The position numbers and the translations under genes were made by a program. Shown piece by piece: positions 60,183 to 61,687 of a DNA stretch of 64,000 nucleotides. The stretch is from NCBI RefSeq assembly GCF_053078305.1, contig NZ_CP166879.1. One strand, given 5' to 3'. The notes beneath the pieces were generated by a model. It was not told the DNA's origin. It saw only the letters and a list, made by a program, of their open reading frames with translations, and ran no database searches. Each line of letters begins with the position of its first letter. Position 1 is the stretch's first letter.

Positions 60183-60635
60183 TTAATGTTGCGGTTTATA
60201 ACGCATATAAAAATTAATAAACCACGCTCCCCGGCATTCAACGCGCTGCTGCTTAACTGTCTGAAAACCATAACGTTCAAAAAAGGGTTTTGCGGTTATG
60301 CTTGCGTCCACCGTAAGTTCGGATTCAGACTTAATCAAAGGTTTTAACAAAGCGCTGGCAACCCCACGGCGGGTGTATTCAGGGTCAACAAATAACATAT
60401 CGATATAGTATTCAACGCAGGTAATAAAGCCGACCAGTTTTGCATTAATGACTGCAACCCGCACTTGTGATTTCGCGAGTTTCTCCTTCCAGCGAGATTC
60501 GTCAATCTGCGCCCAGGCGGCAATTTGTTGTGGTGAATAATGCTGACTGGCGGTCATCGTAACCGCTCTAAGGAAAATAGCGCATAGTTGCTGAAAATCG
60601 CCAGGCTGATAGTTTCTTATTTGTATGTTATTCAT
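60183..60635 (-). CDS. yafP: GNAT-family acetyltransferase YafP
   Basis: 150 aa [43 protein letters not shown]...; start overlaps dinB stop by 4 nt. Confidence 0.85.
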
Positions 60636-61687
60636 AATCCCAGCACCAGTTGTCTTTCCATTTGCGGGTCAAGCAACGTCACATGCAGCCCCACCAGTCG
60701 CACACCGCGCCCGCCGCGGCGTTCATCCCAGGTTTTACGCGCGGTGGCGATTAAGTCAGCTTTATTCAGCCGCGGCCAGACGTGCTCCTGGGTGGTTTGC
60801 TGAAAATCGTCGAACTTTAATTTCACCCCCTGGCGAGCAATCAGTAAATCAGGTTTTACCTTTGCCAGACGGCGTTCAAGTTCCGGATACAGCCGCTCGA
60901 TAATCGCTTCACATTCAGACCAGTGATGAATATCTTCCGCCATCGTGCGTTCCACGCCGACGGATTTTCGTAACCGTTCGCTGTTAACGTCGCGCTCGTC
61001 AATCCCCTGACTACGCTCCCACAAAATGCGGCCAAATTTGCCAAAGCGTTTAAGCAGAATCACCAGATCACACTTTTGTACATCACCGCAGGTCCGCAGC
61101 CCCATCGCTTCCAGTTTTGCCGCCGAGACTTTGCCGACGCCGGGGATTTTTGCCAGTGGTAAGGTTTGTAAAAATGTCGGAACTTCTGCCGGCGTAATCA
61201 CAAACTGGCCGTTGGGTTTATTCATGTCTGAGGCGATTTTGGCGAGAAACTTTACTGGTGCCACGCCCGCAGATGCCGTCAGTTGCAGCTCGTTGAAGAT
61301 CGTCTGGCGGATTTCCTGGGCGATGAGGGTCGCAGAACCGTGGCAATGGACGCTATCGGTGACATCGAGATAAGCCTCATCCAGTGACAACGGTTCAATA
61401 CGCGAGGTGTAGCGCGAGAAGATTTCACGGATATGATTTGAGGCTTCTTTGTAGGCGTCAAAGCGCCCCGGAAGCAAGGTGAGATGCGGGCATAATTTGA
61501 GCGCCATCCCTGTCGGCATAGCGCTACGTACGCCAAATTTACGCGCGGGATAATTGGCGGTGCTGATCACCCCCCGACGTTCGCGGCTACCGCCAATAGC
61601 AATAGGGATATCGCGCAGGGCGGGATTGTCGCGCATCTCCACTGCGGCGAAAAAGCAGTCCATATCCACATGAATGATTTTACGCAT
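60632..61687 (-). CDS. dinB: DNA polymerase IV
   Basis: 351 aa [69 protein letters not shown]... Confidence 0.95.

Follow-up and report, generated by a model that had tools for sequence, protein, structure and literature searches.

In Escherichia coli K-12, the genes dinB and yafP are separated by the toxin-antitoxin pair yafN-yafO, whereas in the 64,000-nucleotide stretch of contig NZ_CP166879.1 (RefSeq assembly GCF_053078305.1) that we analyzed, hereafter the window, dinB directly abuts yafP. How did the two genes come to be joined, and do they still form a working operon? We consider it highly probable that the window carries a two-gene allele (LexA box-dinB-yafP) that arose from a four-gene operon by a precise 759-bp deletion at 7-bp repeats, with Pol IV and YafP co-expressed in the SOS response and yafP translated by reinitiation. 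The two-gene operon itself is already known. Its recognition in the window is a correct rediscovery of a polymorphism published in 2011, in a study that described a two-gene operon with an ATGA overlap (Gutierrez, Elez, Clermont, Denamur & Matic, 2011, Nucleic Acids Res 39:4192; PMC3105422).

dinB and yafP Overlap by Four Nucleotides

Both genes lie on the minus strand. dinB (60632..61687) encodes an intact DNA polymerase IV of 351 amino acids, a Y-family translesion polymerase, and yafP (60183..60635) encodes an intact GNAT-family N-acetyltransferase of 150 amino acids. Each protein matches an NCBIfam equivalog: DinB scores 545.2 bits against NF002677 (DNA polymerase IV; cut-off 256) over residues 1–345, and YafP scores 324.5 bits against NF007338 (cut-off 146), covering positions 1–150 of the 150-position profile.

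The initial annotation had described dinB as abutting yafP between 60183 and 61687, with the stop of one overlapping the start of the other, and its coordinates prove exact. In the open reading frame list and in the sequence, the dinB stop codon TGA (60634..60632) and the yafP start codon ATG (60635..60633) share a 4-nt ATGA overlap at 60632–60635. On the gene strand, the junction sequence runs ...CAA CTG GTG CTG GGA TTA TGA, over ATG AAT AAC ATA. It contains a single copy of the heptamer ATTATGA (60632..60638, minus strand), which spans TTA, the final codon of DinB, as well as the stop (TGA) of dinB and the start (ATG) of yafP. The gap between the genes is thus −4 with no gene in between, which is the CFT073-type two-gene operon as defined by Gutierrez et al. 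(2011).

Both Proteins and the Control Region Are Intact

DinB of the window differs from the K-12 protein by two amino acid changes, A171T and M210I. Residues D8, D103, E104, F13, and Y79 are all found at their K-12 positions, and the protein ends in ...ERQLVLGL. We take D8, D103, and E104 to be the catalytic carboxylates, F13 the steric gate, and QLVLGL the C-terminal β-clamp motif.

The LexA (SOS) box CACTGTATACTTTACCAGTG (61702..61721, minus strand) is located as an exact string upstream of dinB, where it is presumably the established dinB LexA operator, and it is identical to the K-12 box. It is also the single occurrence of CTG-N10-CAG between window positions 59900 and 62700, and it overlaps a promoter-like pair of hexamers, −35 TTCTCA and −10 TATACT (61738..61711). 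This combination of box and hexamers would place the operon in the SOS (LexA) regulon. The 75 bp 5′ of dinB match K-12 save for one base, at −3. A gene-strand scan found no intrinsic terminator 3′ of yafP. Because the LexA box, the catalytic and clamp-binding residues of Pol IV, and the GNAT match of YafP are all intact, the operon is, judged from its sequence, a working SOS operon.

YafP is much the more variable of the two proteins, with a mean dN of 0.033 compared with 0.005 for DinB. Relative to K-12, the window protein (60183–60635) has 11 amino acid changes, clustered at residues 59–76, which hold eight of them. Relaxed or diversifying selection on a region that faces the substrate could underlie this cluster.

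The Window Lacks a 759-bp Segment Bounded by Direct Repeats

For K-12, the initial annotation gave the order dinB-yafN-yafO-yafP, and the annotation of NC_000913.3 agrees with it, giving lfhA'-lafU-dinB-yafN-yafO-yafP-ykfJ-prfH-pepD-gpt. To either side of the junction, the window and K-12 are collinear. Window 64000..60632 matches K-12 lfhA'-lafU-dinB to the dinB stop at 97.0% identity without a gap, and window 60638..59982 matches K-12 yafP and downstream sequence at 96.1%, beginning 3 bp ahead of the start of yafP. Within the operon, the sole structural change is an indel of 759 bp containing yafNO. This extra DNA of K-12 comprises 752 unique bp and a second copy of ATTATGA, such that heptamers bracket yafNO; positions 3448–3454 and 4207–4213 of the K-12 locus (L001) both align to window 60632–60638. 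Just upstream of yafN, K-12 contains another exact copy of ATTATGA together with ATTATG-like motifs at a 12-nt spacing.

The yafN-yafO pair is missing from the window, as had been claimed. Neither tblastn with the K-12 YafN and YafO proteins nor sensitive blastn with the 755-bp K-12 segment gave a match in the 64-kb window, where the best E-values were 6.3, 0.46, and 0.48, and no YafN-YafO type II toxin-antitoxin pair was found within these 64 kb.

The regions flanking the operon carry polymorphisms of their own. On the dinB side, window 61758–64000 contains lafU and then an lfhA (flhA-like) remnant, collinear with K-12, which form the deletion scar of the Flag-2 lateral-flagella cluster; strain Dog168 has a full-length lafU beside motA, which suggests a retained Flag-2 cluster. 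On the yafP side (59214–59964, minus strand), an N-terminal fragment of RtcB (∼69 amino acids matched) overlaps an N-terminally truncated prfH, and K-12 likewise has ykfJ and prfH pseudogenes. In many other strains, among them STEC17-190, rtcB (1140 bp) and prfH (615 bp) are both intact, and the difference amounts to a second indel polymorphism, immediately downstream of yafP. We rejected yafNO as the source of a span longer by 1027 bp in some of the top megablast matches and infer that it corresponds to intact rtcB-prfH, as seen in other fetched two-gene loci. A 72-bp span difference in the best megablast matches lies between yafP and the rtcB remnant.

Farther from the operon, a genomic island beside tRNA-Thr/proA occupies about 36000–51500 of the window (mapped via the STEC17-190 locus, L025, which is 99.3% identical). 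It encodes CdiB, the contact-dependent-inhibition tRNA-nuclease toxin CdiA, DprA, a “TOTE conflict system” primase-domain protein, an inovirus-type Gp2 protein, and a YfjI-family protein. Collinear coverage of window 36000–60000 reaches 80% or more in just 6 of 5426 genomes.

The Direct Junction Is Common in E. coli

Of 5426 complete E. coli genomes, 2569 gave a single contiguous match to a 200-bp probe centered on the junction, and in the others its two halves match separately. Of the same genomes, 2847 contain the K-12 yafNO segment, 2831 of them at a coverage of at least 80%, and the median is one copy per yafNO-bearing genome. Because 2569 and 2847 sum to about the whole 5426, strains with the direct junction essentially never keep yafNO elsewhere. 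The dinB-yafP junction is genuine, neither an artifact nor a chance feature. An error of assembly or sequencing, or a move of the cassette to another place in the genome, has almost no chance of explaining the missing yafNO: the junction is clean, in frame, and repeated across thousands of complete genomes, the two counts roughly exhaust the collection, and yafN- or yafO-like sequence is absent from the 64-kb window.

The term “backbone polymorphism,” used in the initial annotation, is apt, with presence and absence of yafNO roughly 50/50 across the species. K-12 does not represent a “normal” state to which the window is the exception. In the published survey, dinB and yafP alone were present in 40% of 98 E. 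coli/Shigella genomes and in 50% of the ECOR collection, with CFT073 among the two-gene strains, and in such strains the two genes were “always fused together” with the ATGA overlap (Gutierrez et al., 2011). Nearly all group A strains had four genes and all B1 strains two, while groups B2 and D were mixed; E. fergusonii had the four-gene form, and at least three losses of yafNO were inferred (Gutierrez et al., 2011).

Over the adjoining 24 kb, the window is most similar to the genome of STEC17-190 (99.3%), which likewise has the two-gene form, and the nearest neighbors of the window are STEC and bovine strains.

A Model of Precise Deletion at a 7-bp Repeat

These comparisons are consistent with a model in which the ancestor was a four-gene dinB-yafN-yafO-yafP operon. 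Deletion between the direct ATTATGA repeats, one at the dinB stop and the other at the yafP start, would have removed 759 bp, corresponding to the yafN-yafO type II toxin-antitoxin cassette and one repeat copy. From the repeat architecture, the most likely mechanism would be RecA-independent slipped misalignment or short-homology illegitimate recombination. At the ATGA junction, both the C terminus of DinB, with its clamp-binding QLVLGL, and the N terminus of YafP are unaltered.

The Same Junction Occurs on Different Haplotypes

We compared 22 fetched alleles and constructed neighbor-joining trees of dinB and yafP. Two-gene and four-gene alleles are interleaved in both trees, and the topologies for dinB and yafP disagree. 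An identical dinB-yafP junction is found with two or more strongly differing flanking haplotypes. The two-gene alleles of Dog168 and E14 equal the four-gene alleles of NU14, MEI3O-23, and FDAARGOS_1304 at all variable sites within 260 bp on each side, and over this distance 12 sites in dinB and 19 sites in yafP separate these five from the window allele. Further haplotypes are represented by alleles of the ATCC 25922 type and by the two-gene allele from MOD1-EC7003, which belongs to another Escherichia species.

The yafNO segment of NU14 differs from that of K-12 by 14 nt, and the cassette would therefore be old on this B2-like haplotype and the split between two-gene and four-gene forms there recent. 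The comparison favors deletion, on the B2-like flank haplotype at least, and independent recurrence of the yafNO deletion. Recurrent deletion at the repeat is supported because one two-gene flank haplotype is identical to four-gene alleles up to the junction. For the B1-like haplotype of the window, no four-gene allele identical up to the junction was found among the 22 alleles, and the deletion in the window may be shared with other B1-like two-gene alleles.

A single ancient deletion, followed by homologous recombination that moved the two-gene allele to other haplotypes and Escherichia species without any recurrence, would account for a junction that is identical in all two-gene alleles, here and in the published survey (Gutierrez et al., 2011), and for the incongruent trees. 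The dinB-yafP locus is, from its sequence, clearly a mosaic: the window equals Combat11I9 over the last 260 bp of dinB and begins to differ from it near position 196 of yafP. Markers are sparse within about 30–120 bp of the junction, a range in which short conversion tracts would be invisible, and it is possible that such gene-conversion tracts carried the indel onto different haplotypes. We nevertheless regard a single deletion as rather unlikely. Dog168 and E14 show no donor-type SNPs within 260 bp on either side and instead match the local four-gene alleles. Transfer would also require both crossovers to fall within about 30–120 bp of a 759-bp heterology, several times over, whereas the 7-bp repeat provides a ready mechanism for recurrence.

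Loss or Gain of yafNO

A 7-bp flanking direct repeat fits an insertion with target duplication equally well. The two-gene form might then be ancestral, at least on the window haplotype, with K-12-type operons having gained yafNO at the dinB/yafP overlap along with a 7-bp target duplication, and the cassette later spreading between Escherichia lineages by homologous recombination via the flanks; yafNO would then never have been present in the window. Toxin-antitoxin modules are generally held to be mobile, which counts in favor of such a gain, as do the perfect 7-bp repeat, bounding the insert as a target-site duplication would, and the presence of the two-gene junction in the species representative MOD1-EC7003, outside E. 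coli. However, the 752-bp K-12 insert has no convincing terminal inverted repeats, and no recombinase is found in or beside it. In 7 of 7 four-gene loci examined, including E. whittamii, the insert is 755 bp long and occupies the same site, and E. fergusonii is four-gene as well (Gutierrez et al., 2011). The ATTATGA-like motifs spaced at 12 nt upstream of yafN suggest that the repeat may belong to the control region of the cassette. On the B2-like haplotype, identical flanks around a cassette that is 14 nt away from K-12 fit a recent loss and not a gain. We therefore judge an ancestral two-gene state to be distinctly unlikely.

Scanning GTDB species representatives with YafP yielded four loci from Escherichia, besides an irrelevant GNAT from a planctomycete. 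E. whittamii and one other Escherichia species representative have the four-gene form.

One further observation favors gain: yafNO, and mostly yafO, lies well below dinB and yafP in both synonymous and total divergence, suggesting a younger common ancestor. In a small sample of six four-gene alleles (L001, L006, L007, L016, L018, and L022), mean NG86 dS is 0.237 for dinB, 0.128 for yafN, 0.050 for yafO, and 0.178 for yafP, and among four-gene alleles yafNO is 2–3 times less diverged than dinB and yafP. A 100-bp sliding window reveals a valley of diversity over yafNO with sharp edges at the junctions. Between K-12 and E. whittamii, the insert has 15 differences in 755 positions, compared with 95 in 1509 in the flanks (Fisher p = 2e-6). 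Straightforward vertical inheritance of a cassette already present in the ancestor would not predict the low divergence of yafNO, which may instead reflect a younger common ancestor or horizontal spread.

Because the synonymous divergence of yafNO is 2–5 times below that of the flanking genes, even between Escherichia species, the junction could be a two-way hotspot of gain and loss. The cassette would be spreading horizontally into two-gene operons, by recombination or by site-directed insertion at ATTATGA, and would be lost repeatedly at the same repeat, and the two-gene state of the window could be ancestral. We consider this unlikely. The low divergence of yafNO is the sole point at this locus that might repay follow-up at population scale. 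Deletion from a four-gene operon at the ATTATGA repeats is the reading adopted below.

The Cassette Has Been Eroded in More Than One Way

A third allele, dinB-yafN-yafP, is present in Escherichia sp. E1V33 (L004, 3960–4010) and in E. coli GF43 (L024, 2336–2386). In these loci yafO is cut to its first 8 codons, with the junction ATGCGGGTATTCAAAACAAAACTTA|T/C|ATTATGAAT, and the upstream region of yafN is kept, leaving an orphan antitoxin gene yafN 31 bp upstream of yafP. The allele is rare: of 5426 E. coli genomes, about 16 at most give a partial match to yafNO. A deletion confined to yafO implies that the cassette has been eroded in more than one way.

Smaller changes were also seen or annotated among the fetched loci. 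In “E. coli” SCPM-O-B-8794, a GTDB species representative, a premature TAA lies at codon 120 of yafO (L006, about 3950–3960; ATG CAG TAA compared with ATG CAT AAA in K-12), which leaves the toxin short by 13 residues beside an intact yafN. In strain 3CM (L010), O157 AR-0428 (L017), and an ST648 strain (L023), yafP and/or dinB are annotated as frameshifted; these are either pseudogenes or homopolymer sequencing errors.

Expression of the Two-Gene Operon

In the proposed scheme, LexA would repress a single mRNA from the dinB promoter, and DNA damage would lead to Pol IV and YafP being made together. Co-transcription from the dinB promoter has been shown in the literature for CFT073 and K-12. A cell with this operon would lack both the SOS-induced YafO, a ribosome-dependent mRNA interferase, and the antitoxin YafN.

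A clear Shine-Dalgarno sequence is absent ahead of the yafP start. An ATGA overlap is conventionally read as stop/start coupling. Because yafP has no evident Shine-Dalgarno sequence of its own, termination-reinitiation coupling at ATGA is the most likely route, and yafP is probably translated in this way, such that its output would be tied to translation of dinB. Gutierrez et al. (2011) noted the same lack of a Shine-Dalgarno sequence and proposed “frameshifting” for the translation of yafP.

The functional link between Pol IV and YafP has been shown experimentally for the CFT073 allele only (Gutierrez et al., 2011). In that study, a YafP-YFP fusion made in CFT073 was up in stationary phase and induced by mitomycin C, and YafP was deleterious in the absence of Pol IV, both in a mouse septicemia model and upon treatment with NQO and nitrofurazone.

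Discussion

The window belongs to an E. coli with the common, published version of the SOS-inducible dinB operon and is in this respect ordinary. For annotation, the strain has a CFT073-type SOS operon without the SOS-induced toxin YafO. K-12 is no universal reference for the dinB-yafP locus, and the yafNO polymorphism can be used as a lineage marker. The junction offers a naturally occurring case in which precise deletion at a 7-bp repeat, apparently recurrent, has produced what appears to be a translationally coupled pair of genes, and two-gene strains allow the interplay of Pol IV and YafP to be studied free of confounding by the toxin-antitoxin pair.

The four-gene operon of K-12 (McKenzie et al., 2003; Singletary et al., 2009, as cited in Gutierrez et al., 2011) shares with the window the promoter and LexA box bar one base, yafP, and collinear flanking genes. 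It differs in the 759-bp segment encoding the antitoxin YafN and the ribosome-dependent mRNA interferase YafO. The window is also without the yafN-proximal control region of K-12, so yafP directly overlaps dinB. Like the two-gene form, the three-gene allele is a deletion derivative of the same operon in which toxin function is gone, but its junction, …AAAACTTA[T/C]ATTATGAAT, differs from the two-gene junction, and the form is absent from the window.

The closest known counterpart is the CFT073-type operon. Its genes, their order, the ATGA overlap, and the absence of yafNO are all shared with the window, as are the neighborhood, with lafU upstream and rtcB/prfH/pepD downstream, and an intact LexA-controlled promoter region; there is no structural difference between the two. 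In sequence, the window allele is a different haplotype from the ST73-type alleles, with ∼96% identity to ATCC 25922 in dinB and ∼94% in yafP, and it is closest to those of STEC and commensal strains, at 98–99%. Where Gutierrez et al. (2011) speak of ATGA, we describe a 7-bp repeat, ATTATGA. That the end-points coincide with this 7-bp repeat, and not with ATGA alone, is an addition to the published account.
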